DNA of 64,000 bases from a bacterium (GCA_024226255.1 JAAELU010000141.1:23093-87092), one strand, 5' to 3'. Positions 45,262 through 63,413 are shown, counted from the first letter of the stretch. Made by a program: numbers and translations. Notes: a model not told the origin generated them from the letters alone.

Positions 45262-45437
45262 AGGTGGCAGTTGGCGGGACGTCGTTGCCAACTAGATGGG
45301 CGATACGACTGATCTGGAGGCAGACCAACACGAGCCCGACCGGCCTGGACCTGCCCGCAGGTTCCTCAAACGACGCCGCGGCAAGCTGCCGAGTGTCGGG
45401 TGGGGCTAGGCTCGGATACGGCGACTGGAGGGTTCTG

Positions 45438-47330
45438 GTGAACGACGTATTCGTCTGCCACGCATCTGAAGATCGGTCTTTCGCCGAGGCGGCTGTGGCG
45501 GCGCTCGAGGCCCGCGGGATTCGGTGCTGGATCGCCCCGCGAGACGTTCCTCCCGGTTCGGACTATGCGGGGGCCATCCTGTCGGGGATCAGCACTAGCC
45601 GAGTATTGCTCCTCATCTTCTCCCACTGGTCGAACGAGTCGCCGCACGTGCCCCGGGAAGTGGAGCGGGCAGTCAATCGGAAAATGCCAATAGTCCCGTT
45701 CCGTTTGGATGAGGTCGCTCCGAGCGGCCCCCTCGAGTATTTCATCAGCGGTGCCCAATGGTTTGATGCCGCCTCGGGCAGCCCCGATGACCACCTCCCG
45801 GCTCTGGTCGACGCAGTCAGGCGGCTGGTATCCCCCGCAGCCACGCCAGCCCCCGTGGCCGAGCGGGAGGACTTCAGCCGCGAAGTGCGCGAGCAACTGG
45901 AGACGCTGGTCTTGCGGTACGGCACCGAGTTGGCCGGTGACGCGCGCCGGCTGCAAGCGGTGCTCCGTGACATGGTTGGAGAACATCCAGCCGAGATTTC
46001 GGCGCTGGTCACTGCAGCGGAGGAAGGGGTGCCGGAGATGTTGCTGCACTCCTCGGACCCAGGAGCCTCGGCCACCCGGGAACGCCTGGCCCGCCGCTTG
46101 AAGGAAAGGCGTGCGCTCGGCATGGAGGCGGCGGAGTGGGCGGTAGCGTCGTGGGCACGTGCCCTCCGGATCCCACCGTCCCCTTCTCAGCCGCCGCTGG
46201 ACCTCGGGGAGACGAAGCCGGCCTCCGCCGCCGAACCAGAGAAGACCCGTCCCGTGGAGATAGACGAGAGTCTCACGCCCGCCGTGTCATCGGGCCAACC
46301 AGCGGCTCCGCCCGTGCCGCCGGCGAAAGAGGTCCCCCGAGCAAGTGCCGAGCCGGCGCAGGCGGCACCGTCAACCCCGCCGCAACCCCGGGTAGCGCAA
46401 TCGCCGCCGCGTCCCGACGGGCGTCCCGCCTGGATCTATGCGCTGCTTGCCGTGATCGGCGTCGCGCTCGTTGTTGGAGCCGTCGTTCTGTTCTCCGGGG
46501 ATGAGGCGACCGGTCCGGCAGCGACCGATGTCACCACCACCACCGGAGTCACGACCAGCGGGCTCGGCACTACGCCGAGCACGCTCACTCCGACCGCACT
46601 ATCGGCTGACTCCGAACGAATCGTTGCCCGTGGGCAGGTACGGATCGGCGTTCGGGACAACCCCTTGCCGCCCCTCACAACCTTCGAGGCGGATCTCTCG
46701 CAGGAGGTTGTCTCGCGTCTGTTCGGCGACATCGCCGTGGAGTTGGTGCCGGTCGCCGTCCTGGACCGCTTCGCCGTTCTCGAGGCTGGTGATGTCGACT
46801 TCCTGATCCGTTTGACGACCCACACCACGAGCCGGGAGGAGCTGGCGTCGTTCACCAGCCCATACTTCCTCGATGGATTGGCGTTCGCATTTGGGCCGGA
46901 CCGCGGGATCTCCTCGATCAGCGGTCTGGCCGGTCTGACGATCGGAGTGTTTGACGGAACAAGCACGGAACTGGAGGTCCGGCAGGCCTTGGAGGGGAAT
47001 GGAGTGGGTGCAACGATCGTCGGATTCGACGACACCGACGCCGTATCCAATGCTCTCGTAGCCGGCGAAGTCGACGCCATTGGCGTGTATTGGGCGCAGG
47101 CTCTCAACTACGTAGAGACCCTCGGTGTCGACGCATTCCTCTACACGCTGCTAGAGCCGCTCACAGTCGTGGTGTCACTTGAGAACCCCGGCTTGCGCGA
47201 CGATCTCGACCGGGTCTTGCGGGAAATGGTGGCCGACGGGACCTGGCGACAACTGTATGAACTCCGGTTCGTGGAACCGCCGCCCTGGAGCGAGGATGAG
47301 ATGTCGACCTTCCCGCCGGTCGACCGATGA
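45438..47330 (+). CDS. TIR-domain single-pass membrane protein with a C-terminal extracytoplasmic solute-binding (SBP_bac_3-like) domain
   Basis: GGAGGG-N5-GTG start. TIR_2 pattern VFVCHASEDRSFAEAAVAALEARGIRCWIAPRDVPPGSDYAGAILSGISTSRVLLLIFSHWSNESPHVPREVERAV. A helical middle region, a Pro-rich linker, TM WIYALLAVIGVALVVGAVVLF, then an SBP_bac_3-like domain (FLIRLTTHTTSREELASFTSPYF, LTIGVFDGTSTE, VAGEVDAIGVY). Confidence 0.75.
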   Translation: MNDVFVCHASEDRSFAEAAVAALEARGIRCWIAPRDVPPGSDYAGAILSGISTSRVLLLIFSHWSNESPHVPREVERAVNRKMPIVPFRLDEVAPSGPLEYFISGAQWFDAASGSPDDHLPALVDAVRRLVSPAATPAPVAEREDFSREVREQLETLVLRYGTELAGDARRLQAVLRDMVGEHPAEISALVTAAEEGVPEMLLHSSDPGASATRERLARRLKERRALGMEAAEWAVASWARALRIPPSPSQPPLDLGETKPASAAEPEKTRPVEIDESLTPAVSSGQPAAPPVPPAKEVPRASAEPAQAAPSTPPQPRVAQSPPRPDGRPAWIYALLAVIGVALVVGAVVLFSGDEATGPAATDVTTTTGVTTSGLGTTPSTLTPTALSADSERIVARGQVRIGVRDNPLPPLTTFEADLSQEVVSRLFGDIAVELVPVAVLDRFAVLEAGDVDFLIRLTTHTTSREELASFTSPYFLDGLAFAFGPDRGISSISGLAGLTIGVFDGTSTELEVRQALEGNGVGATIVGFDDTDAVSNALVAGEVDAIGVYWAQALNYVETLGVDAFLYTLLEPLTVVVSLENPGLRDDLDRVLREMVADGTWRQLYELRFVEPPPWSEDEMSTFPPVDR

Positions 47331-49957: not shown

Positions 49958-50261
49958 CCGTCGCCGGGTTCTCGTGGAGACAGTCTTCCTCCCAGCCACT
50001 GGAGCCTCCGAACTGTGCTGGATCCAAGGCATCGACCCCAGAGATGGGACCGCCGCGAAACTAGGGAAGCCGCTGATCGTCGACGCCGCATTGGTACGGC
50101 TGAGCGCGATTCCTGGCGCACGTGCCTTCCCAAGCCATTAGAGACCTTCGGCTCTACACGCATTAGAAGGCATATGTAGGAATAGGGCCAAACACAGAGC
50201 CATTCTTGCAGCAGGATCCGTTCCTGCGGGTCGCGCTGCCCGTATAGAAAGGACTGCTCGC

Positions 50262-50510
50262 ATGACTCTGGCGGACGACACAAGCGTGTCTTTGACATTG
50301 GATCTGAAGGGCATGCTCTGCCCGATGCCGGTCGTCGAGATTTCGAGGGCGATCAAGCAAGTTGAAGTTGGCCAGATAGTCGAGGCTACGGCAACGGATC
50401 CTGGAGTGATGGCCGACATCCCGGCGTGGTGCCACAGCACAGGCAACACTCTCATGGCGTTGGAAAAGGCGGAGTCTCACTTCGTCTTCAGGGTCCGGCG
50501 CGACGCTTGA
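50262..50510 (+). CDS. tusA: TusA-family sulfurtransferase
   Basis: DLKGMLCPMPVVEISRAIKQVEVGQIVEATATDPG (CPxP active-site motif). Confidence 0.75.
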   Translation: MTLADDTSVSLTLDLKGMLCPMPVVEISRAIKQVEVGQIVEATATDPGVMADIPAWCHSTGNTLMALEKAESHFVFRVRRDA

Positions 50511-50525
50511 CCTGGATGGCAATGT

Positions 50526-51173
50526 ATGACATTCGATTCCGCTCTGCACTTCGTTGAGTTCGAGCTCCAGATCATTGCCCTGACTTGGATGGCCCTGCTC
50601 TACACCATCAAGGCAGTTCAGTTATCCAGATTGCCGATGCCCTGGGAGCAGGGTCCCGCTAGAGGCAGCCGAGCCGCCGGTTCGGCGCGCTCATACCTCG
50701 GGATCTTCGTTCCGCAGAGCCGGGAGAGCTCGCGGCTCCACCCATGGCGCTGGGTCGAATTCGGCGCGTACCATGTCGGGGCGGCGGTGGCGATCCTCAT
50801 CACGTTCACCTTGCCATTTGCTCCCGGCCTCATGACGCGTGCCGTTTCGATCGTGTGTGCCGTTTTGATCGCGCCGGCGTTGCTGGTCGGCTTCGCCAAG
50901 ATCTACAGACGCCTGGCGCAGCCGGACCTGCGCTTCATCAGCTCGCTGGACGATCACGTGTCACTGATCACGCTGCAGTCGTTCTTCCTCACTGCGGTGA
51001 TGGTCTTGCTGTTCGACACTCCCGGCTGGCGCATGGCCTACTTCCTGGTGGTGGCGGCATTCCTGTTCTACGTACCGTTCTCGAAGATCAGCCACTACGT
51101 CTACTACGGGTTCTCTCACTTCCTGACCGGAAGCCGCTACGGCTGGCGGGGCGTGACACCGGGGAGGACGTGA
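50526..51173 (+). CDS. NarI/DsrM/HdrE-like heme-b membrane anchor
   Basis: Five TM helices with conserved His (HFVEFEL, AYHVGAAV, SLDDHVSLI, SKISHYVYYGFSHF). Lies immediately upstream of, and overlaps, the HdrD-like gene. Confidence 0.55.
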   Translation: MTFDSALHFVEFELQIIALTWMALLYTIKAVQLSRLPMPWEQGPARGSRAAGSARSYLGIFVPQSRESSRLHPWRWVEFGAYHVGAAVAILITFTLPFAPGLMTRAVSIVCAVLIAPALLVGFAKIYRRLAQPDLRFISSLDDHVSLITLQSFFLTAVMVLLFDTPGWRMAYFLVVAAFLFYVPFSKISHYVYYGFSHFLTGSRYGWRGVTPGRT

Positions 51174-51174
51174 C

Positions 51175-52494
51175 ATGACGAGCGACATCGAAGTCCCGAT
51201 CACTGACCGGGCCAAGGAGGAGCTGGAGAAGCGGTTCAACCGGTTGGTGGGTGTATCGGCAACGAACCTGTGCACACACTGCGGATGGTGCATCGACTCA
51301 TGTCACGTCTACCTGGCCACGGGCGATGTTCGTCTGTCCCCGGTCGGCAAGGCGGACCTCATTCGGCGCCATTACAAGCGCTCGCACGACTGGATGTCCA
51401 AGGTGTTTCCGCGTTGGACCGGGGCGAAATCGGAGATCACCGAGAACGAGTTCGACGACTGGCTCGAGGCCGCCTTCCAGGCCTGCACACTCTGTGAGCG
51501 TTGTGTCGTCAACTGCCCAATGGGTGTCGAGACGCCGCAGCTGCTGGCGGCAGCGCGCGGCACTCTGACGGCCATTGGCAAGGCTCCCGAGATCCTGGAT
51601 CAGCTCGCCAACGCTGCGATTGCGCGGGAGGAATTCCTGGACAGCTTCTCTGAGTACTTCCTCGACCAGATCACCGTGCTCGAGGCTGAAGTCCGGGAGA
51701 AGCTGGACGACCCGACGGCGCGGATCCCGGTGAATGAACCGGCGGAGATTCTCTACGTGCCGCTGTCCGGGGCGCACACGATCGTCCCCCAGGCGATCAT
51801 CTTCAACGCGGTTGGTGCCTCATGGTCGCTGTCAATGTTCGAAGCCTCCAACTATGCGATGTTCCTCGGTGATACGGCCCGGGCCAAGAAGATTGCGATG
51901 CGAGTCATCAATGAGGCTGAGCGCCTCGGGGTGAAGGAACTCGTCATCTCCGAGTGTGGCCATGCATATACAGCCTTCCGTTGGGAGGCGCCTAAGTGGT
52001 TCGGAGGCCCGCTGCCCTTCAAGGTGCGCAGCATCGTTGAGGTGCTCGATGAGTACGTGGCCGAGGGCCGACTGCCGATAGATCCGAGCATCAACTCGGA
52101 GCCACTCACCTATCACGACCCGTGCAACCTGGGTCGCAAGGGTGGGGTCTTTGACGAACCGCGCCGGGTAATCGAGGCGGCGTCGACAGACTTTCGTGAG
52201 ATGACGCCCACCAAGGCCCAGAACTTCTGTTGCGGTGGAGGTGGTGGCCTCGTGGCTCAGCTCGACTGGCGCGACCAGCGGATCGCCTTCGGCGGCCCCA
52301 AAGCAGACCAGATTGCCGAGACCGGAGCCACCCGGGTCATCACGTCGTGTGACAACTGCCGCCACCAGATAAACGAGCTAGGCGACAGCTACGGCCTCGG
52401 TTTGTCCGAGGTTGTGTCTGTATCCGAGCTGCTCGTGGATGCACTCCTCGCAGCTCGTCAGCCGGTACAACAACTTGCCAAGGAGGAAATGTGA
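51175..52494 (+). CDS. HdrD/DsrK/GlpC-like Fe-S protein (2x[4Fe-4S] plus two CCG domains)
   Basis: CTHCGWCIDSCHV and CTLCERCVVNCPM ferredoxin motifs; Cys-rich CCG motifs YHDPCNLGRKGG and QNFCCGGGGG. Confidence 0.7.
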   Translation: MTSDIEVPITDRAKEELEKRFNRLVGVSATNLCTHCGWCIDSCHVYLATGDVRLSPVGKADLIRRHYKRSHDWMSKVFPRWTGAKSEITENEFDDWLEAAFQACTLCERCVVNCPMGVETPQLLAAARGTLTAIGKAPEILDQLANAAIAREEFLDSFSEYFLDQITVLEAEVREKLDDPTARIPVNEPAEILYVPLSGAHTIVPQAIIFNAVGASWSLSMFEASNYAMFLGDTARAKKIAMRVINEAERLGVKELVISECGHAYTAFRWEAPKWFGGPLPFKVRSIVEVLDEYVAEGRLPIDPSINSEPLTYHDPCNLGRKGGVFDEPRRVIEAASTDFREMTPTKAQNFCCGGGGGLVAQLDWRDQRIAFGGPKADQIAETGATRVITSCDNCRHQINELGDSYGLGLSEVVSVSELLVDALLAARQPVQQLAKEEM

Positions 52495-53009
52495 GCGATG
52501 ACGACGGTCGCAGGAAGATGGCGTTGATCGCCTCTCAGGGAACCCTCGATTGGGCCTATCCGCCCTACATCCTGGCGTCCACAGGGGCCGCGATGGATTG
52601 GGATGTGCGGATCTTCCACACCTTCTACGGCCTGACACTTCTCAAGAAGAAGCTCAAGGCGAAGGTAGCGCCATACGGCAATCCTGCGATGCCCATGAAG
52701 ATGCCCTTCGGACCGCAGGGGTTCCAGTCGATCGAATGGCCGATCCCCAACATCGTCCAGACCAACGTTCCGGGCTTCAATCGCCTGGCGACGGTGCTGA
52801 TGAAGCGCACTTTCAAGAAGAAGGGCGTCCAGTCGGTCGAAGCCATGCGCGACATGTCCCTGGAATTAGGTGCCACCCTCATTGGGTGTCAGATGACGAT
52901 GGACGTATTCGGCTTTGATCTCGAGGAATTCATTCCCGGAGTCGAGATCGCCGGTGCGGCCGCCTTCCTTGCGTTCGCCGCCGACGCCGACATTCAGTTG
53001 TTCGTCTAG
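52491..53009 (+). CDS. DsrE/DsrF-like family protein
   Basis: LIASQGTLDWAYPPYILASTGAAMDWDVRIFHTFYGLTLL; ATGA-type overlap with the HdrD-like gene. Confidence 0.5.
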   Translation: MSDDDGRRKMALIASQGTLDWAYPPYILASTGAAMDWDVRIFHTFYGLTLLKKKLKAKVAPYGNPAMPMKMPFGPQGFQSIEWPIPNIVQTNVPGFNRLATVLMKRTFKKKGVQSVEAMRDMSLELGATLIGCQMTMDVFGFDLEEFIPGVEIAGAAAFLAFAADADIQLFV

Positions 53010-53054
53010 GGAGGACTTGACGCGGCAGGCGCCGTGCGATGGAGGCCGCCGGCA

Positions 53055-53214
53055 ATAGGCGGTCAGGAAGTCGTGCCGCAATTGCGCGTGCCGCGTTTCT
53101 TCTGCGACGTGAAGTCATTTGAACTCTCTGGGCGGCCCTTTCCGGTGGTCTGGTGGCGTCTGCGGTGGCACCGTTTGGTTGCGCGGATAAGGCTCGAGCC
53201 CAGTAGCGCCGACC
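53055..53214 (+). repeat. Copy d of the tRNA-Val-3'-end-terminated repeat (degenerate)
   Basis: Body features ...gcgtgccgcgtttcttctg..., tgaactctctgggcggc, tggtggcg and gcgcggataagg; the 3' end is ggctcgagcccagtagcgccgacc (53191-53214). Confidence 0.65.
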
Positions 53215-53233
53215 TAGATAGCCGAGCGTCGGC

Positions 53234-54028
53234 TCACGATCCCTGGCGTCGGACTGCCTGTGCGTCGACCCAGCCCGACAGACCACTGGCAGGATCGGTC
53301 AGATGGGCCCAGCCACTGTCCTCCCGCTCGAGTTGGTACCACTGCGCCGGCTCGGCGGAGCCGATCACGGCGTCCGTATTCTCCAGGCCGTACATCGGGG
53401 TGGGTTGCTCGACGAACACCCATTCGGGTTGCGCTACTGGTGACTTTGGAGGGGCTGGTGCGGCCGCGGCCCGTTCGACGGTTGGGGGTGCCGGGGCCTT
53501 GGCCTTCTTGTGGCTCGAAACAGGCTGGGCCACCTCTGTATCCACGGCCGGGGCGGCGGGCACGTCGGGAAGCGGCACGGGAGCTGGGCGTGATGCAATC
53601 CAAGCCTCCTCAGCCCGCATTTCCTCTTCGACGCTGTCGAGCATCGTGGCGCCGGCTCGTGCCAGGAGGCGCGTTGCCTGGACGGCAGCGGCAAGGGTTC
53701 CGGCAGTTGTGGTTGCGCCGTCCAGCCACAGTCGAGCAGTGATCTCCTTTTGGTCCTCAGCGGCGTCGAATTCAGCCAGGTCAGCCCGGCCGAGGAGCAG
53801 TCCGTCGAGAGCAAAGCGGACCCGACTGTCGACCTGGTCCGATGGCCCCGACGGCCAGCGCGCCGGCGACGAGGCAACCAATCGAATCGCTGGTCCGTCG
53901 ATGATGATCCCGACGCGGTCGCCATCGATTGACGCCTCGTAGCGGAGCGGATCGGCCGTCTTCGAGACGCTGAGCGGTCCGAATCCCGTGTCGACGAGTG
54001 CCTCGAGTAGGTCGGTTGTCATCGCCAT
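53234..54028 (-). CDS. YbjN-like N-domain plus Pro-rich linker plus bacterial SH3-like C-domain protein
   Basis: 264 aa; the C-terminal region WVFVEQPTPMYGLENTDAVIGSAEPAQWYQLEREDSGWAHLTDPASGLSGWVDAQAV resembles SH3b. Confidence 0.45.
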   Translation of the reverse strand: MAMTTDLLEALVDTGFGPLSVSKTADPLRYEASIDGDRVGIIIDGPAIRLVASSPARWPSGPSDQVDSRVRFALDGLLLGRADLAEFDAAEDQKEITARLWLDGATTTAGTLAAAVQATRLLARAGATMLDSVEEEMRAEEAWIASRPAPVPLPDVPAAPAVDTEVAQPVSSHKKAKAPAPPTVERAAAAPAPPKSPVAQPEWVFVEQPTPMYGLENTDAVIGSAEPAQWYQLEREDSGWAHLTDPASGLSGWVDAQAVRRQGS

Positions 54029-55857
54029 GTTCTGATCTCCTCAATCGGAAGAGCCCGGCCGGCTCTGTTGGCAGCTGTTTTGAAGACGCTGAGGTCTGAG
54101 GGGGGTTGCAGACCTTCGACGCCAGCGTTCACACACTCGCTGTAGACACCATGCAGTTCCCGGAGTCGTTGGGCGACGTCGTTGTTGAACAGCTCCCGCA
54201 ACCGGTGGATCTCGCTGTTGATGTAAGGCGACCGTGTGTCCAACCAGCCCCGCATCTGCCGGGTCTTGCCCACCAGCACATGATGGAAGTCCTCGGGTTT
54301 CATGACTTCGGAGCCGAGCGACAGAACAATGCTGGTGACGCCCATCGCAACGGCCACGGGCCAAGAGATCGCCACGCCGGCCACGGTGAACAGCACACCG
54401 GAAACCGACAGCGCCGCGGCGCTGGTCTGCCCGCCGACGAACCACGATGACGGATCCCGGCCCTCCAGGTCGGCGATCGCCCGGTCGAAGCCGGCTTTCG
54501 TTGCTGCCAGGTCACCCTCTCGGTCCAACCATTTCTGCAGATCGGCGACAACATCCCACGCCACTCGTTCGGCGGCACGAACATCGGCCGGGTAGGTTGA
54601 ACATCCTTGGCTTGCTTCGCGCTGTTCCCTGATGTCCCGCCGCCGCGGCTCGACGATTCGCTCGGGAACTCGGCCGCCGCGTCCGGCACCTGCGCGGGCA
54701 GCCTGCCTGGCCGAGGCGAGTAGATTGCCGGCGTCTAGAGGGATCATCTCGGCACCACAGGCTGAGGCACGGCGGTTGTAGGCGCTGATCTTCCGGTTGA
54801 GCACCTCGAGCCGGGCCGCTCGCCGGTCGCTCAGTTGCCGGGAGAAGCTGTCCCATCGAGCCTGTTCTCCCTCGGCGGCGTCGATCCGAGCGATTCCTTC
54901 GCCGCGCGCCCGCAAGATGTGGCTGCGGCTGCGGTACCCGCCGACCGCGGCGCGGCTTCCATACGCGCTGTAAACGCCCCCAAGGACCCCGACGCCGCGC
55001 ATCGCCGTGCCGAACCTCGTGATCTTGCCACCAGCGCCCGCCGCAGCCGCCAGGTCGTCCGTCGTCTGGCCCGTGAGGCGGGCTCCCTGGATCATCTCGT
55101 CTGCCGACCCTGCGAGTGCCTCAGCCTCGCGTGCCAGCTTTGCAGCCTGGAACTCCGTCTCCAGGGCACCCTTGTACATCCGCGCCCACTTGTCGTAGCC
55201 GGGGTCGGTCATGGGAGGCGGCGAATCCAACAACCGACGCAACGTCTCTCCCGCCGCCTTGCGGCCCTCGGCGATCGCTCGAAGCGAGTCGGCACGCGCC
55301 GCCCGGGCGAATCCCTGCTGAGCTCGCGCCGCCGCAGCCGGCGAAAGCACACCGGTCGCCCGCGCCAGATTGGGTTCGCGGAACCTGTCGTAGGTAGCGG
55401 TTCCAATTCCGGTCAGGTCTCCGTGCGGTACCGAGGCGCCCGGAGTGGTCCCGCTCGTTGGATCTCCAAACGCGTTCTGGCCGGCACCGATCCATTCGTC
55501 GAGGTTGTTGGCCATTCGATTCGCTCCCTCGATGGTGCCTTGGAGCTCGGCCAGGTACGCAAACTCGTCGTGAACGGCATCGAGGAGTCCGTTGAGCGCC
55601 TCGAGGCACTCGGGCGAGAGTTCATTGCGCTGGCCGGTTGTAGGATCAACGGCCCCCGTGGGGCTCGACGGGATCAATCCGGTGGCGGCGGCAGCCGCAA
55701 TGATGGCCCCGGCGACGGCGGCCCCGCCGCCAACCGTCCAGGCGGTGTTCGAGCAATCGGTTGGGCTCGAGCAATCGTCGGCAACGGCCGCTCCAGTGCC
55801 GATAACCAAGAAAACGCCTACGAATGCCAGTAGCCACCAAACCCGGCGGGTCACCAC
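54019..55857 (-). CDS. large hypothetical membrane protein (612 aa) with an N-terminal signal-anchor and a second hydrophobic hairpin near the C-terminus
   Basis: GAGGGGAG RBS plus GTG 55857. TM WWLLAFVGVFLVIGTGAAVA; later ALSVSGVLFTVAGVAISWPVAVAMGVTSIVLSL. The 168-aa N-terminal extension in the track is rejected. Confidence 0.5.
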   Translation of the reverse strand: MVTRRVWWLLAFVGVFLVIGTGAAVADDCSSPTDCSNTAWTVGGGAAVAGAIIAAAAATGLIPSSPTGAVDPTTGQRNELSPECLEALNGLLDAVHDEFAYLAELQGTIEGANRMANNLDEWIGAGQNAFGDPTSGTTPGASVPHGDLTGIGTATYDRFREPNLARATGVLSPAAAARAQQGFARAARADSLRAIAEGRKAAGETLRRLLDSPPPMTDPGYDKWARMYKGALETEFQAAKLAREAEALAGSADEMIQGARLTGQTTDDLAAAAGAGGKITRFGTAMRGVGVLGGVYSAYGSRAAVGGYRSRSHILRARGEGIARIDAAEGEQARWDSFSRQLSDRRAARLEVLNRKISAYNRRASACGAEMIPLDAGNLLASARQAARAGAGRGGRVPERIVEPRRRDIREQREASQGCSTYPADVRAAERVAWDVVADLQKWLDREGDLAATKAGFDRAIADLEGRDPSSWFVGGQTSAAALSVSGVLFTVAGVAISWPVAVAMGVTSIVLSLGSEVMKPEDFHHVLVGKTRQMRGWLDTRSPYINSEIHRLRELFNNDVAQRLRELHGVYSECVNAGVEGLQPPSDLSVFKTAANRAGRALPIEEIRTWR

Positions 55858-56520
55858 AAACTCCCCTCGTAGCTCGGGCGGGTCAACCTTAGGGGTGAAC
55901 CACCCGGATCGGCCATGAGCCACTGCCGAGCGAGCAAACCCAGGACGATGCCGTAGAAGAGGTGGCCAACCAGCGAGACGGAGATGAACGCCACGTCGGT
56001 CTGGCTGATACCGGTGTAACGAGGGGTGACCATGATGGTGGCACTCTCGAGTACGAGCGCCCAGAGCACCGCCCATCGAGCCCGAGCAGCCCCGGCGATG
56101 AGAGCGAACATCACAGCGAACGACAGGCCGTTCCAGAAGTGATATCCCCATCCGGCGACGATGGCTGCCGTCTGATCTGGTGTTGTCGACAACATGAGGG
56201 CACCGAAGTTGGGATGAGCGCGGAAGGGATCGAACGATGCCGGAGTTGCCCACGCAACGACGAGCCGGCTGAGGTCGTAGACCGCAGTCCCTGCAGCGCC
56301 GGCCACGACTCCCACCCACATACGCCGGACCACGTCGCGGCGGTTGACCCGGTTGGCCCATGCCCCCATGGCGACGACGGCGACCGTTGCGGGCAGGGCG
56401 AAGAACGACAGCGTGAACGGCATCGCGATCACGTCGTACACATCCAGCAAGAGGGCGACGATGCCTGATGCGGCCCCTAGCGCCCCCAGGATCCTCAGCA
56501 GTCGGTCACTCGGGCGTGTA
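55851..56520 (-). CDS. hypothetical polytopic membrane protein (about 6 TM)
   Basis: Hydrophobic throughout (ILGALGAASGIVALLL, FTLSFFALPATVAVVAMGAW, AVLWALVLESATIMV, VAFISVSLVGHLFYGIVLGLL). The start is undetermined, as no ATG/GTG/TTG lies before the first TM. Confidence 0.4.
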
Positions 56521-60000: not shown

Positions 60001-62328
60001 CTAGCGCGCCACCATCACAGTGAATTCTGCGAAGCCGGAGCCGGATGAGTTCTCGCGGCCTTCGAGGAGGAGCCGGACCGAACGGCCCGCGACTTTGGGC
60101 AGGACGAGGACGTCGGGATCGGGCGTGCCCGGGAGTTCGACGAACTCCTCGAATACGATCTCCCCGTCGGCGTCGATCACCTGGATCGTGACGGCCGCGA
60201 AGCCGTGGTTGGTACGGCGGCTGACTGTCGAGTTCTGAGCATTGGAGACCATGACTACCTCTCCGATGTAGTCGTCTTGGGTACCGGTCCACTGGAAGGT
60301 GGAGTAGGTCCCGTCGCCGCTCGATGAGATCCACGATGTTGTTATGTCGCCGTCAGTGGCCTTGCTGGCTGCGAACGAACCGCACAGGCGCGACGATGCA
60401 GTCACGGTGCCCTCATCGGTGGCGTCATGGTCGGCGACGACCACCGTGGTGGTAGTCGTGCTGGTCGTGGTGGAGGTGCTGGTGGTAGTCGGGGCGGTGG
60501 TGGTCGTAGTGGATGAGGTCGTGCTCGTCGTCGCGGCAGTTATGTCATCGGAGTCGGCCGAGGTGTCCGAGCCGATGGTCCTGACGAATGCCAGTCCAGT
60601 AGCGATGTCCTGCAACACGAACTGAGTGAGCGGCTCCTCGCACGGTTCGAGTTCGACTATGGCTGCCGGGTCGAAGGCGGGCCAGGCGATACCGACGAAC
60701 GTCGGGCTCGGCACCGGTACCGGTAGTGTGAGCGGACTGCCGGACGCGCACCGTACGCGGGGCTCTGCGGTCGCTCCTACCAGGACCGCGGTTCCCTGCT
60801 CTAGCAGAGCCTGCCGGGAAACCACGCGGCCGTTGTCGAGAACATGTGTGGTGACTCGCACGTCCCGGGTCAGGTGCATCGGCGTCAGGCCGGCGACGAA
60901 GGCGGCGATATCTTGGAGAGCGATGCCCTGCGCATCAGCCCAGACTTGCGAGAGCGCCGTGTCCCCATTCAGCTCGTCGAGGAGAATGCTGCTGTTGCAA
61001 CCGGCGCTCCCACGGTCGGCTGCATAGATCAGCTCATCCGAGCCCTTCACCAATGCTACCTCGGAGGCGCCCTCTGAGTGGAGGGTGGTTGTCGGGCCTT
61101 CCATCGCGTGGGTTTCTCCCATCGCCAGCAGGCTGGCCGTGAATACGTGCTCGATCGCGCCCGCCGCTTCCAGGTAGACGTTGTCGGAGGCAAAGGACAC
61201 AGCATCCTTCGAGCCCTGATTGGCAATCCACGCCGCGACGCCACCTACCAGAACGGCTACAAAAGCAGCACCACCGACGAATGCGGCAACCTTGTTGCGC
61301 GTGCCGCCGTTCTTCCCCCGGCTCTGCTGAATGGGCGTCGGTGAGGGTTGGGGCCTTTCCTCTGCCCTGACGGTGTCCGGGAGTGGTGGTTGTGGCGGTG
61401 GTGTTTCGCCGGTGGCGGCCACGGTGTCCTGGGGCGGTGGTTGAGGTGGTGGTTGTGGTTGGACTGGCGGTGTTTCGCCGGTGGCGGCCACAGTCTCCTG
61501 GAGTGGTGGTTGTGGTTCTGGTTCGACTGGTGGTGTTTCGCCGGTGGCGGCCACGGTGTCCGGAAGTTCATCGGCGGCGGCTGGGGGCGGCTGCGGCGCG
61601 GCCGCTTGCTCCATCCCAAGCGCATAGACCCAAGCACCAACCGCCCAGCGTGAGGCATCCTCGGCCAGCGCCCGGTTCTGTTGCAGGCGACGGACGAGAC
61701 GTTCTGTGAGCTCCGGGGTCAGCCCTTGCGACGATTGACGGAGGGCGGCACCGACCCCCTCCTCGGCACCTGCAAAGAGTGCCGCCACCTCGGCGCGGTG
61801 GTCTCCGGCGACGTCCCGCAGCAGAGCTCGCACCCGGCGGGGATCGTCGGTGAGCTCGGGACCGTATCGGTCGACCAGATCGCGCAGGGTTTCCCTCGTA
61901 GCCTGACGGGCATCCTCTCCGGCTTCCCCGTAGATCCGCAAGCGAATGATCTTTGCCAGCTCGACAACATGCTCCTCGGTTGTGAGGTAGGTGGCGTCGA
62001 GCCATTGGGCACTGCTGATGAAGTACTCGAGCGATGCCGACGGCTCGACGTGTTCGATGCGGAAGGGGATGATGTCAATGCCCCGGGACACAGCTCGCTC
62101 AACCTCGCGACTTACATGCGGCGACGCGTTCGAGAAGTTGGAAAACACCAGGACGAGGGCCTTGGCGCCTGAAATACCGGCCACGATCGCCTGGGCGTAG
62201 TCGGCCCCCGGCATGACATCGCGCGGCGCCACCCAGCAGGTGATTCCGCCTTGCTCGAGGCCGGCCACCACCGCATCGGCGATCGCTCGATCCTCCGAGG
62301 CATGGCAGACGAATATCTCACGCGCCAC
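60001..62328 (-). CDS. TIR-domain single-pass membrane protein (paralog of 45438-47330) with a different ectodomain: unknown domain, Thr-rich linker and a discoidin/F5-8-type-C-like C-terminal domain
   Basis: MAREIFVCHASEDRAIADAVVAGLEQGGITCWVAPRDVMPGADYAQAIVAGISGAKALVLVFSNFSNASPHVSREVERAV TIR_2 pattern. The middle helical region is homologous to the first TIR protein. PPQP repeats; TM VAAFVGGAAFVAVLVGGVAAWIA; TTSTTSSTTTTT linker; a C-terminal beta-sandwich-like region ...DGDITTSWISSSGDG... Confidence 0.75.
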   Translation of the reverse strand: MAREIFVCHASEDRAIADAVVAGLEQGGITCWVAPRDVMPGADYAQAIVAGISGAKALVLVFSNFSNASPHVSREVERAVSRGIDIIPFRIEHVEPSASLEYFISSAQWLDATYLTTEEHVVELAKIIRLRIYGEAGEDARQATRETLRDLVDRYGPELTDDPRRVRALLRDVAGDHRAEVAALFAGAEEGVGAALRQSSQGLTPELTERLVRRLQQNRALAEDASRWAVGAWVYALGMEQAAAPQPPPAAADELPDTVAATGETPPVEPEPQPPLQETVAATGETPPVQPQPPPQPPPQDTVAATGETPPPQPPLPDTVRAEERPQPSPTPIQQSRGKNGGTRNKVAAFVGGAAFVAVLVGGVAAWIANQGSKDAVSFASDNVYLEAAGAIEHVFTASLLAMGETHAMEGPTTTLHSEGASEVALVKGSDELIYAADRGSAGCNSSILLDELNGDTALSQVWADAQGIALQDIAAFVAGLTPMHLTRDVRVTTHVLDNGRVVSRQALLEQGTAVLVGATAEPRVRCASGSPLTLPVPVPSPTFVGIAWPAFDPAAIVELEPCEEPLTQFVLQDIATGLAFVRTIGSDTSADSDDITAATTSTTSSTTTTTAPTTTSTSTTTSTTTTTVVVADHDATDEGTVTASSRLCGSFAASKATDGDITTSWISSSGDGTYSTFQWTGTQDDYIGEVVMVSNAQNSTVSRRTNHGFAAVTIQVIDADGEIVFEEFVELPGTPDPDVLVLPKVAGRSVRLLLEGRENSSGSGFAEFTVMVAR

Positions 62329-62402: not shown

Positions 62403-63413
62403 TCAAGCTCGGGCACGCGAGACCCGCCAACCCGTGTGCTCCTCTGAAACGGCTGCCTCGGCAGTGTCCACAAACGTTGCCCACTCGTCCTCGTCCTCGA
62501 TCGGCTCCAGGATCGATTCCATTGCCAGGAGCTCGTGGGCAGTGTTCGCGTATGCACGGGCCTGCCGGTCGTATCGCCTGACCCCTGTCCACATCGTGAT
62601 CAATGCCGCCACGAAGCCGGCAACTCCGAGGATGTTGACACCGAAGGAGCCCAAGCCCTGGAGCAGGCCGAAGAGAATCGCCACCGCGCTGGCGAGCACG
62701 AACATCGCGTCCCAGAAACGAGCCAGGTGTTCGTTGGTACGGGCGCGGTCTGAGTACCACGATGCCTGATCGTCCACGCGGCCGGTTGCGTACGCCGCCT
62801 TACGCTGCTCTAGCCCGGTATGGCGTAACTGCCGCATCGCCGGTGTGATCTGGTAGTGAGCGCCACGGGTGGGGGGCGTATGCAGGCTGCCGAGTTCGGC
62901 GAGCAGCTCCCACAGGCGGGCGTTGAAGAGTTGATCCGCCTCCTTGTCGGTGCCTTCTTGCAGAGCGAACGGAACACCGCCTACGGAGTATCGCCACGAC
63001 AGACTCTTGACCGATTCGGCCGCCAGCCGCGCGTCGTACCACGATGCTTCCAGGCTGGACAGCCGTGAATAGACCCGCAACGCCGCGACGGCGAGGAAGG
63101 CTCCTACCCCCACAATGGCAATCTGGTCGACCCCGGTGGCGGCAGCCGCCGTACCTGAGGTGACGCCGATCAGCAGCAGGACGACCTGCGCCTTGATGAC
63201 GCCGAAGAACATGGTGCGTGAGCTGATCGATTCCTTGTCCGCGGCCTGGAAGAGGGCGGGCAAGTCGGAATGCTCCAGCACCATCTCATGGGCTCGTGTG
63301 GGATCCTCCAATCGAACCGTGCCTCCCGCCGCTTTCGTTCCCGTCCACGCTAGTGCTCCGATGGCGGCGGTCGTCGCGGAACTGCGTTTTGGGCTACCGG
63401 CGCTTGAGGACAT
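62403..63413 (-). CDS. tandem 2TM SLATT-like (SLATT_1 plus SLATT_3 / DUF4231-like) membrane protein
   Basis: Two repeats of a TM hairpin plus amphipathic helix with W..RY signatures: FFGVIKAQVVLLLIGV...IAIVGVGAFLAVAALRVYSRLSSLEASWYDARLAAESVKSLSWRY, then FWDAMFVLASAVAILFGLL...ILGVAGFVAALITMWTGVRRYDRQARAYANTAHEL. The start is uncertain (20-nt overlap with the cyclase gene). Confidence 0.5.
   Translation of the reverse strand: MSSSAGSPKRSSATTAAIGALAWTGTKAAGGTVRLEDPTRAHEMVLEHSDLPALFQAADKESISSRTMFFGVIKAQVVLLLIGVTSGTAAAATGVDQIAIVGVGAFLAVAALRVYSRLSSLEASWYDARLAAESVKSLSWRYSVGGVPFALQEGTDKEADQLFNARLWELLAELGSLHTPPTRGAHYQITPAMRQLRHTGLEQRKAAYATGRVDDQASWYSDRARTNEHLARFWDAMFVLASAVAILFGLLQGLGSFGVNILGVAGFVAALITMWTGVRRYDRQARAYANTAHELLAMESILEPIEDEDEWATFVDTAEAAVSEEHTGWRVSRARA

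Follow-up and report, generated by a model that had tools for sequence, protein, structure and literature searches.

Which reaction is carried out when two sulfur carriers are encoded together with a membrane protein and a cytoplasmic iron-sulfur (Fe-S) protein? The question is raised by four co-directional open reading frames (ORFs) found on the + strand, from position 50262 to 53009, of a 64,000 nucleotide stretch of bacterial DNA (GCA_024226255.1 JAAELU010000141.1:23093-87092; hereafter the window). They code, in this order, for a TusA-type sulfur carrier, a membrane anchor, a DsrK-like Fe-S subunit and a DsrE2-like protein, and are referred to below as the cassette. Inspection of the translations confirmed exactly the coordinates given in an earlier model-made reading of the same DNA (the first-pass annotation), whose family assignments were upheld in hidden Markov model (HMM) and fold searches. 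The cassette has a defined domain content, characteristic ligand sets, the NarI/EtfD fold in its anchor, cytoplasmic soluble parts and a tight synteny; its cofactors, the nature of its substrate and the coupling to quinone are what we infer. On balance we favour, with modest confidence, its assignment as a membrane-bound thiol/(per)sulfide:quinone oxidoreductase of the DsrMK/HdrED/EtfD class, whose substrates would be the co-encoded single-Cys carriers.

The DsrK-like Fe-S subunit

The third protein of the cassette has the architecture of DsrK, i.e. two ferredoxin-type [4Fe-4S] motifs of the form CxxCxxCxxxC(P) (C33/36/39/43 and C104/107/110/114) and one intact C-terminal CCG domain (C317-X34-C352C353-X38-C392xxC395). 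All these cysteines are conserved in at least 48 of 50 homologues and are invariant in alignment A4. The Pfam matches are to CCG (3e-13, a single stretch at residues 312-399), Fer4_8 (1e-10) and Fer4_17. Among the NCBIfam models the best is DsrK (NF045796; 232.6 bits), which is matched end to end (residues 13-428 against positions 35-439 of 453), followed by TmcB (198 bits) and HmcF (196 bits). These scores lie under the respective cutoffs of 400, 735 and 750 bits, so the protein stays outside the DsrK equivalog, and the GlcF, LutB, TfrB and GlpC models score far lower. GlpC next to glpAB, an identity that the first-pass annotation had left to be checked, is ruled out by scores far under the cutoffs (57.4 bits against 278 and 37.5 bits against 279.9) and because no glpAB genes adjoin the cassette in the window. 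The protein has neither a signal peptide nor a transmembrane (TM) segment and is therefore placed in the cytoplasm.

The N-terminal CCG-like half is degenerate. Of its cysteines only C261 is left, within the invariant block E260-C261-G-H263-A-Y (ECGHAY), and H201 is also invariant. The first-pass annotation had proposed two [4Fe-4S] clusters and two CCG domains, of the HdrD/DsrK type. Both [4Fe-4S] motifs and the DsrK type stand; the second CCG domain and the HdrD type do not, since the two intact CCG domains of HdrD/HdrB were not found here, where the domain is single.

A profile of the family searched against the Protein Data Bank (PDB) matched EtfD (1e-19) and, in several structures, the C-terminal CCG domain of HdrB (4-6e-3). 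For the AlphaFold2 model of the subunit (predicted local distance difference test, pLDDT, 85.6) the best Foldseek match is EtfD (E 5.9e-12), then LutA and HdrB. C352C353G pairs with C193C194G of HdrB and C392xxC395 with C231xxC234, C234 being the bridging "catalytic" cysteine of HdrB (PMC13083937). C261 and H263 align with C581 and H583 of EtfD. In the latter protein C581 is a ligand of an extra linear [3Fe-4S] cluster while H583 completes the noncubane cluster and is said to render it non-catalytic (PMC13083937). The three remaining ligands of the linear cluster (D1) of EtfD are missing from the window protein. The C261/H263 pair should lie next to the CCG cluster, where it could provide an auxiliary redox Cys or be the sign of a pure electron-transfer cluster.

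The membrane anchor

The anchor has no Pfam match, including none to Nitrate_red_gam, and its NCBIfam scores are all far under cutoff (HmcE 43 bits for a cutoff of 275; TmcC 29.5 bits; QmoC 20 bits). Neither its single sequence nor a profile gave a match in the PDB, and the fold search alone tied the protein to NarI and EtfD. Its AlphaFold2 model (pLDDT 82.8, predicted template modelling score 0.78) has five long TM helices arranged in the five-TM NarI fold. By the positive-inside rule the N-terminus is outside, and the Arg-rich loops 33-75 and 127-143 and the C-terminus are cytoplasmic.

Conservation was examined in an alignment of 30 homologues with 56-83% identity (A1). H83 and H190 are invariant, as are the block FLFYVPFSKISHY (residues 179-191), R129, D142 and D143, while R136 is nearly invariant. 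Two further histidines, H8 and H72, are nearly invariant and lie outside the NarI ligand positions. The NarI sequence used for comparison was that of E. coli K-12. Three segments are paired by hhalign: YH(83)VGA with FH(56)IGI, YRRLAQPDLR with KRRLFSPRVR, and PFSKISH(190) with PFSRLIH(205). R129 and R136 correspond to the second of these NarI motifs. H56 and H205 of NarI, the ligands of its proximal haem, are thus both represented in the anchor by invariant histidines. The ligands of the distal haem of NarI, H66 and H187, align on the anchor's invariant T93 and Y172.

The anchor can be described as a NarI fold with one canonical haem site, with H83 and H190 as its putative ligands, because only the proximal histidine pair is kept and T93/Y172 replace the distal one. 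A di-haem anchor was rejected on the NarI alignment. In a comparison drawn with NarI and EtfD rather than with DsrM or HdrE sequences, the protein resembles the single-haem mycobacterial EtfD more than the di-haem NarI; DsrM and HdrE are also di-haem proteins. The first-pass annotation had described a five-TM cytochrome b of the NarI/DsrM/HdrE type, of which the fold is retained but not the di-haem content of the NarI type. A true NarI next to narGHJ is ruled out as well, no narGHJ genes adjoining the cassette in the window.

The sulfur carriers TusA and DsrE2

The first-pass assignment of the first protein to TusA, with a CPxP motif, is borne out by a match to PF01206 (E 1.7e-20, 73 bits for a gathering threshold of 28.6) and by the motif C20-P-M-P. 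Its score with the NCBIfam equivalog (NF001423) is 48.8 bits, under the cutoff of 78, which places it by sequence in the TusA superfamily but not among the orthologues of the E. coli type that act in tRNA thiolation. C20 is invariant in 44 of 44 homologues adjoining the module, whereas C57 is found in 20 of them and is not conserved. There is also a weak match to the YedF selenium-metabolism model (4e-8).

The fourth protein, annotated previously as DsrE/TusD-like, matches PF13686 (E 3.6e-45, 154 bits for a cutoff of 25) and is narrowly under the cutoff of the DsrE2 model NF047629 (193.9 bits for 210). Its C133, within the motif GCQMTMDV, is the sole invariant Cys (35 of 35 homologues). Two DsrE2 forms occur among the loci. 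The one encoded downstream, as in the window, has a 22-residue insert, while the one encoded upstream is shorter and more divergent (65-72 bits on NF047629); FxTFxG and the invariant Cys in C[QE]M[ST]M are common to both. Membrane helices are a feature of the DsrE2A subgroup, whose prototype is Alvin_2601, and no such hydrophobic helix is present in the window protein. DsrE2A proteins also have two strictly conserved cysteines (PMC4175335) where the window protein has one. As a soluble single-Cys protein it resembles and fits the DsrE2B subgroup instead. Its relatives in the PDB, 3pnx and 2qs7, agree with this assignment, 2qs7 being SSO1126, a DsrE2B (PMC4175335).

Distribution and synteny of the cassette

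More than 1600 relatives of the DsrK-like protein are found in the database at E ≤ 1e-10; the best 120, with 60-85% identity, bear no other names than "Fe-S oxidoreductase" or "(Fe-S)-binding protein". The anchor belongs to a small, tight family, with 424 matches at E ≤ 1e-3 and 34 at E ≤ 1e-30 in a library of 1.84 billion representatives of clusters at 50% identity. When one genome per species was scanned, the same gene order was identified in 44 loci, all of them in metagenome-assembled genomes (MAGs), to which further metagenome contigs are added. The triad tusA-anchor-dsrK-like is found at 50-85% identity in 46 loci of at least 10 lineages. Hosts of the cassette are Acidimicrobiaceae, Chloroflexota of the classes Dehalococcoidia, Anaerolineae and Chloroflexia, Bacteroidota (Flavobacteriaceae, Saprospiraceae and others), Neomarinimicrobiota (Marinisomatota), Gamma-, Alpha- and Deltaproteobacteria, Acidobacteriota and Aminicenantes. 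The closest relative is an Acidimicrobiaceae MAG (81-88% identity over all four proteins), which gives indirect support to the earlier statement that the window belongs to a high-GC actinobacterium.

Wherever the sequence is available, the anchor gene lies directly 5' of the dsrK-like gene. TusA adjoins this core in 39 of the 43 loci with intact flanks (91%) and DsrE2 is present in 34 of them (~79%), encoded either downstream (order T-M-K-E, for tusA, anchor, dsrK-like and dsrE2) or upstream (E-T-M-K). The gene set recurs far beyond chance, and the conservation of gene neighbourhood, which the first-pass annotation had listed for checking, is very strong. Flanking genes vary even among the relatives from Acidimicrobiia while three of the cassette proteins keep ~60% identity across phyla; the two observations suggest a mobile, self-sufficient cassette. 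At three loci (L049:15700-17275, L007:226-1299 and L041:3280-4410) a second, distant pair of NarI-like and Fer4/CCG genes is found nearby, with 22-27% identity to the DsrK-like protein, so that in those organisms the cassette is one of several DsrMK-like paralogue systems.

Gene organization in the window

The features of the locus are listed in Table 1. The spacing between tusA and the anchor gene is 15 nt. The anchor stop codon is separated by 1 nt from the ATG of the dsrK-like gene, which is preceded by GGGAGGA, and the dsrK-like and dsrE2 genes share a 4-nt GTGA overlap (52491-52494), the dsrE2 start being preceded by AAGGAGG. One of the two start/stop overlaps described previously is thus real (dsrK-like/dsrE2) and the other is a 1-nt abutment (anchor/dsrK-like). 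These junctions indicate a single operon, and the 1-nt gap and the 4-nt overlap, both with good ribosome binding sites, are arrangements of translational coupling as read from the sequence. In the public annotation these very sequences are called "sulfurtransferase TusA family protein", "hypothetical protein" (anchor) and "(Fe-S)-binding protein", and all four proteins score under the NCBIfam equivalog cutoffs.

A scan of the operon region for promoters gave none, with no match to the sigma-70 consensus, and a scan for terminators gave 1 terminator-like site for 1.9 expected. No regulator gene adjoins the upstream intergenic region in the window. Within it, 5' of tusA, the block 50139-50185 (GACCTTCGnCTCTAnAnGC...ATATnTAnGA) is partly conserved in the closest relative (L001), whose flanking genes differ. 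The block may act as a promoter or operator.

Table 1. Features of the cassette locus (coordinates in the window)
Feature	Coordinates	Strand	Description
tusA	50262..50510	+	82 aa sulfur carrier; PF01206, CPMP
membrane anchor gene	50526..51173	+	215 aa, 5-TM NarI-fold, putative single-haem cytochrome b
dsrK-like gene	51175..52494	+	439 aa, DsrK/HmcF/TmcB-like cytoplasmic Fe-S subunit
dsrE2-like gene	52491..53009	+	172 aa soluble DsrE2B-type protein; PF13686; GTG start
upstream intergenic region	49958..50261	.	304 bp; presumed promoter/operator

Neighbouring genes and regulators

Genes adjacent to the cassette were surveyed with Pfam over 3 genes on each side of ~42 related loci, the top 25 families being considered. 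No family recurs downstream of the cassette. In these neighbourhoods there are no recurrent Dsr, Sox, sHdr, SQR, PDO, ETF, glpAB or nar genes, no conserved lipoate-binding protein, rhodanese or DsrE3, and no YedE, SelD or other selenium gene near the cassette. DsrC, DsrAB and dsrM(JOP), with which DsrK is associated in genomes, are absent within ~8 kb in the window and are not recurrent in the related loci. A canonical Dsr/sulfate-reduction setting was rejected for the cassette, the window and the recurrent neighbours having no dsr, apr, qmo or sat genes.

What recurs upstream are regulators, namely a BigR-like ArsR, a Cys-rich MerR or a MarR. ArsR proteins (HTH_5) are encoded there in 18 loci by Pfam and 20 by BLAST. 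Their best function-specific NCBIfam model is BigR (58-67 bits for a cutoff of 155) and only the generic ArsR/SmtB subfamily model scores higher. Two of their cysteines are found 71 residues apart in 13 of 18 proteins (motifs ELCKT and ACDxVH), and these ArsR may form a distinct persulfide- or thiol-sensing clade. The ArsR/SmtB proteins found upstream of the cassette of Chloroflexota type are ~110 aa long (L002:4200-4532, L051:2872-3216 and ~18 other loci). In Bacteroidota and Marinisomatota a MerR with a 9-Cys C-terminal domain (VPCW..KPC..C..PCW..C..DC..C..C) is encoded directly upstream in 5 loci (L004:2500-2970, L009:1163-1645, L013:4626-5078, L014:3389-3844 and L042:4656-5087). This MerR may be an Fe-S or metal/redox-sensing subtype.

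At one locus, L047:182-11001 (a contig of JGI 3300007511), the cassette is embedded in a larger sulfur island whose arrangement is unique among the sampled loci. The gene order is MarR, a PhsA-like molybdoenzyme (481 bits), a 4Fe-4S subunit, NrfD, a split YeeE/YedE, an 83-aa protein, a rhodanese, MarR, tusA, anchor, dsrK-like, dsrE2 and a DUF302-like protein. A general link of the cassette to psrABC, yeeE and rhodanese genes was rejected, this contig being the only case among ~46 loci.

Proposed function

The following path of electrons and sulfur is proposed. TusA (Cys20) and DsrE2 (Cys133) would take up or pass on sulfane sulfur in the cytoplasm and would bind to the DsrK-like subunit, whose C-terminal CCG domain is expected to carry an HdrB-type noncubane [4Fe-4S] cluster that, possibly aided by the invariant C261/H263, would form or cleave one S–S bond. 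Candidates for this bond are a TusA persulfide, or a TusA–S(n)–DsrE2 di-/trisulfide analogous to the DsrC trisulfide, which is handled by DsrK. Two electrons would pass via the two cubane [4Fe-4S] clusters to the single b haem (H83/H190), and then to or from (mena)quinone. TusA and DsrE2 are the only conserved candidate substrates because no partner dehydrogenase, DsrC, DsrAB, sHdr or Sox is recurrent nearby. Concerning direction, we lean slightly towards oxidation, from carrier thiol/persulfide to quinone, in the frame of an inducible processing of reactive sulfur. This lean is based on the single proximal haem, as in the menaquinone-reducing EtfD, on the thermodynamics of menaquinone and ubiquinone, which favour thiol oxidation, on the many aerobic hosts, and on the stress-type regulators (BigR-like ArsR, Cys-rich MerR, MarR) that are usually found upstream. 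More tentatively, the cassette might be defined as a DsrC-independent, membrane-bound carrier-persulfide:quinone oxidoreductase in which TusA and the DsrE2B-type protein are the dedicated substrates of a single-haem DsrMK-like complex.

Several points weigh against the oxidoreductase proposed. Taken alone, the sequence relationship of the anchor to NarI is statistically weak (hhalign E 0.008 and 0.29) and leans on the fold match, and the binding of haem and of quinone by the anchor is a property that we infer. The prototype of DsrE2B, which is the nearest DsrE2 type to have been characterised, was inert to every sulfur compound tried and failed to bind TusA or DsrE3A in vitro (PMC4175335). The carriers may be accessory, since ~9% of the loci have no tusA and ~21% no dsrE2 beside the core. 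Finally, the equivalence of H263 with H583 of EtfD implies that the CCG cluster could be an electron-transfer centre only.

The last two points lead to a different arrangement, in which the core is an electron-input module of the EtfD/GlpC/LutA kind that passes electrons from a soluble, unlinked flavoprotein or dehydrogenase to quinone, TusA and DsrE2 having accessory tasks in cluster maturation or repair, or in regulation. EtfD is indeed the top structural and sequence match of both subunits, and in a minority of loci tusA or dsrE2 is missing beside the two subunits. We consider this quite improbable: no dehydrogenase, ETF or flavoprotein is conserved beside the core in the ~42 loci surveyed, TusA is present in 91%, and the closest NCBIfam families are DsrK, HmcF and TmcB, not GlpC, LutA or GlcF. 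Furthermore, the absence of the EtfD D1 ligands save C261 makes the CCG cluster the terminal centre. The enzyme could alternatively keep the carriers as substrates and run in the reverse sense. Quinol would then reduce sulfane sulfur bound to the carrier, a thiosulfonate or a trisulfide, with release of H2S (or thiosulfate/sulfite), in a detoxification or respiration where TusA and DsrE2 replace DsrC. That DsrK is the best-scoring named family, that L047 joins the cassette to a psr/phs-type ABC set, a split YeeE and a rhodanese, and that many hosts are anaerobic Chloroflexota or Aminicenantes all speak for it. The linkage to psr/yeeE is however found in 1 of ~46 loci, many other hosts belong to aerobic marine heterotroph lineages, and an anchor without distal haem is also without the transmembrane redox loop of NarI type. 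Reduction of a persulfide by quinol is moreover uphill with menaquinone or ubiquinone on general thermodynamic grounds. The reductive reading thus appears rather unlikely, though less so than an electron-input module.

A role with another chalcogen or metalloid would by analogy involve a selenotrisulfide or other Cys-bridged adduct on the TusA/YedF-like and DsrE-like proteins, or the re-reduction of oxidised carriers for cofactor biosynthesis. The weak match of TusA to the YedF model is in line with such a role, as is the membership of the upstream regulators in metal- and metalloid-sensing families (ArsR/SmtB, MerR with a Cys-rich tail). It is nevertheless very improbable, with no selenium gene nearby and with BigR, a sensor of sulfide/persulfide, as the best specific model for the ArsR proteins.

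Significance of the cassette

No description of this membrane cassette was found by full-text searching of the literature, in which an earlier mention is possible. Lineages that carry the cassette are dominant in the water column of the oceans, in sediments and in soils, and have not been counted among the oxidisers or reducers of sulfur. If it is the DsrC-independent oxidoreductase outlined above, abundant marine and soil heterotrophs (Acidimicrobiia, Flavobacteriaceae, Marinisomatota, Dehalococcoidia, Anaerolineae) would have a direct link, independent of flavin adenine dinucleotide (FAD), between cytoplasmic reactive sulfur and the respiratory chain, and DsrE2B would be given its first biochemical role. 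The conserved operon offers for DsrE2B a concrete, testable partner in the form of TusA and a DsrK-type catalytic subunit. Coupling of protein-bound sulfane sulfur to quinone by the cassette would represent an overlooked node in cryptic sulfur cycling and in reactive-sulfur homeostasis. The cassette would also be a minimal, oxygen-exposed relative of DsrMK/HdrED, useful to study the S–S chemistry of noncubane clusters, and its single-haem anchor, a property common to EtfD, bears on whether and how this class of enzymes conserves energy.

Surroundings of the cassette in the window

Upstream neighbours of the cassette code for a DUF3179 protein, an α/β hydrolase and a TIR-SBP fusion, while unannotatable ORFs, a DUF6789 protein and a DAO-GcvT dehydrogenase are found downstream. 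Between ~20 and 64 kb of the window there is no adjoining regulator and no other sulfur gene. The 302-aa ORF that directly follows dsrE2 (53034-53942, +) translates to a low-complexity sequence with much Arg, Ala and Ser; probably a spurious frame of high-GC DNA, it was not retained as a fifth gene. Two ORFs on the opposite strand (53234-54028, -, 264 aa; 54019-56361, -, 780 aa) have no significant Pfam domain, the longer one having only a weak sub-threshold match to PHBC_N.

The TIR-SBP fusion (45264-47330, +) is a 688-aa protein in which TIR_2 (residues 62-176) is joined to a periplasmic-binding-protein-like SBP_bac_3/NMT1 domain (474-666), an unusual TIR-sensor architecture. A second TIR_2 protein, combined with DUF6777 (60001-62328, -, 775 aa), adjoins a two-TM effector with SLATT_3 and SLATT_1 (62403-63413, -), and together they resemble a TIR/SLATT system of signalling or defence. 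The segment 20610-24274 (-) codes for a molybdoenzyme of the xanthine-dehydrogenase/CO-dehydrogenase type, with a [2Fe-2S] domain fused to the molybdenum cofactor-binding subunit (967 aa) and a separate FAD_binding_5 subunit.

Comparison with known systems

Compared with E. coli NarI (PDB 1q16 chain C), the anchor has T93/Y172 in place of H66/H187 and no narGHJ genes accompany it. The YTD cluster combines a YeeE/YedE transporter gene with three DsrEFH-type genes beside tusA (yedE-tusA-dsrEFH type II; PMC13293266). Membership in this cluster was rejected as the gene content differs, there being no Sulf_transp gene in the window cassette and YeeE in one related contig (PMC9751629, PMC13293266).

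Pairs of tusA and dsrE2 are regularly linked to Dsr or Hdr-like systems (rhd/dsr genes, soluble sHdr; PMC4175335). The sHdr system of sulfur oxidisers (hdrC1B1A-hyp-hdrC2B2) has the same carrier pair beside an Hdr-type enzyme, but in the cassette the partner is membrane-anchored and DsrMK-like, and the hosts are mostly lineages without known sulfur lithotrophy. Relative to the known theme, tusA-dsrE2 beside soluble sHdr or rhd/dsr genes, the membrane-anchored version is well defined, widespread and unstudied.

HdrED of Methanosarcina is like the cassette in having a cytochrome b anchor and an Fe-S/CCG subunit that join a membrane electron carrier to S–S chemistry, and the C-terminal CCG domain of the cassette aligns with HdrB and the HdrD type. 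HdrD/HdrB have two intact CCG domains and two noncubane clusters (PMC13083937) whereas the N-terminal CCG domain of the cassette is degenerate. The substrate of HdrED is a low-molecular-weight heterodisulfide rather than protein carriers, and the hosts of the cassette are bacteria without methanophenazine.

DsrMK, the minimal core of DsrMKJOP in sulfate reducers and sulfur oxidisers, has like the cassette a NarI-family anchor and a cytoplasmic subunit with two ferredoxin-type [4Fe-4S] motifs and a single C-terminal CCG domain (CX34CCX38CXXC), and it acts on a small Cys-bearing sulfur carrier, as proposed for the cassette. The latter differs by scores that are far under the DsrK cutoff for the Fe-S subunit and under those of DsrM, HmcE and TmcC for the anchor, and by its one pair of haem ligands. 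Neither dsrJOP, dsrAB nor dsrC is found near any of the ~46 loci, the carriers being a single-Cys TusA and DsrE2 and not the two-Cys DsrC.

The best structural match to both subunits is mycobacterial EtfD (PDB 9ojn), an ETF:menaquinone oxidoreductase with five TM helices, one b haem (His78/His241), Arg-propionate contacts and a menaquinone site 4-5 Å from the haem, together with 2 cubane clusters plus CCG clusters (PMC13083937). EtfD unites both parts in one fused chain, which also has a long disordered tail and a second cluster, of the linear [3Fe-4S] type and derived from CCG, while the cassette has two genes. The cassette keeps one of the four D1 ligands (C261, equivalent to C581) and has no etfAB nearby, which places it outside EtfD. 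The electrons of EtfD come from ETF, whereas the conserved partners of the cassette are sulfur carriers. Falling outside DsrMK, HdrED and EtfD by the features that define each of them, the cassette would work like DsrMK/HdrED and is structurally most like a split EtfD.

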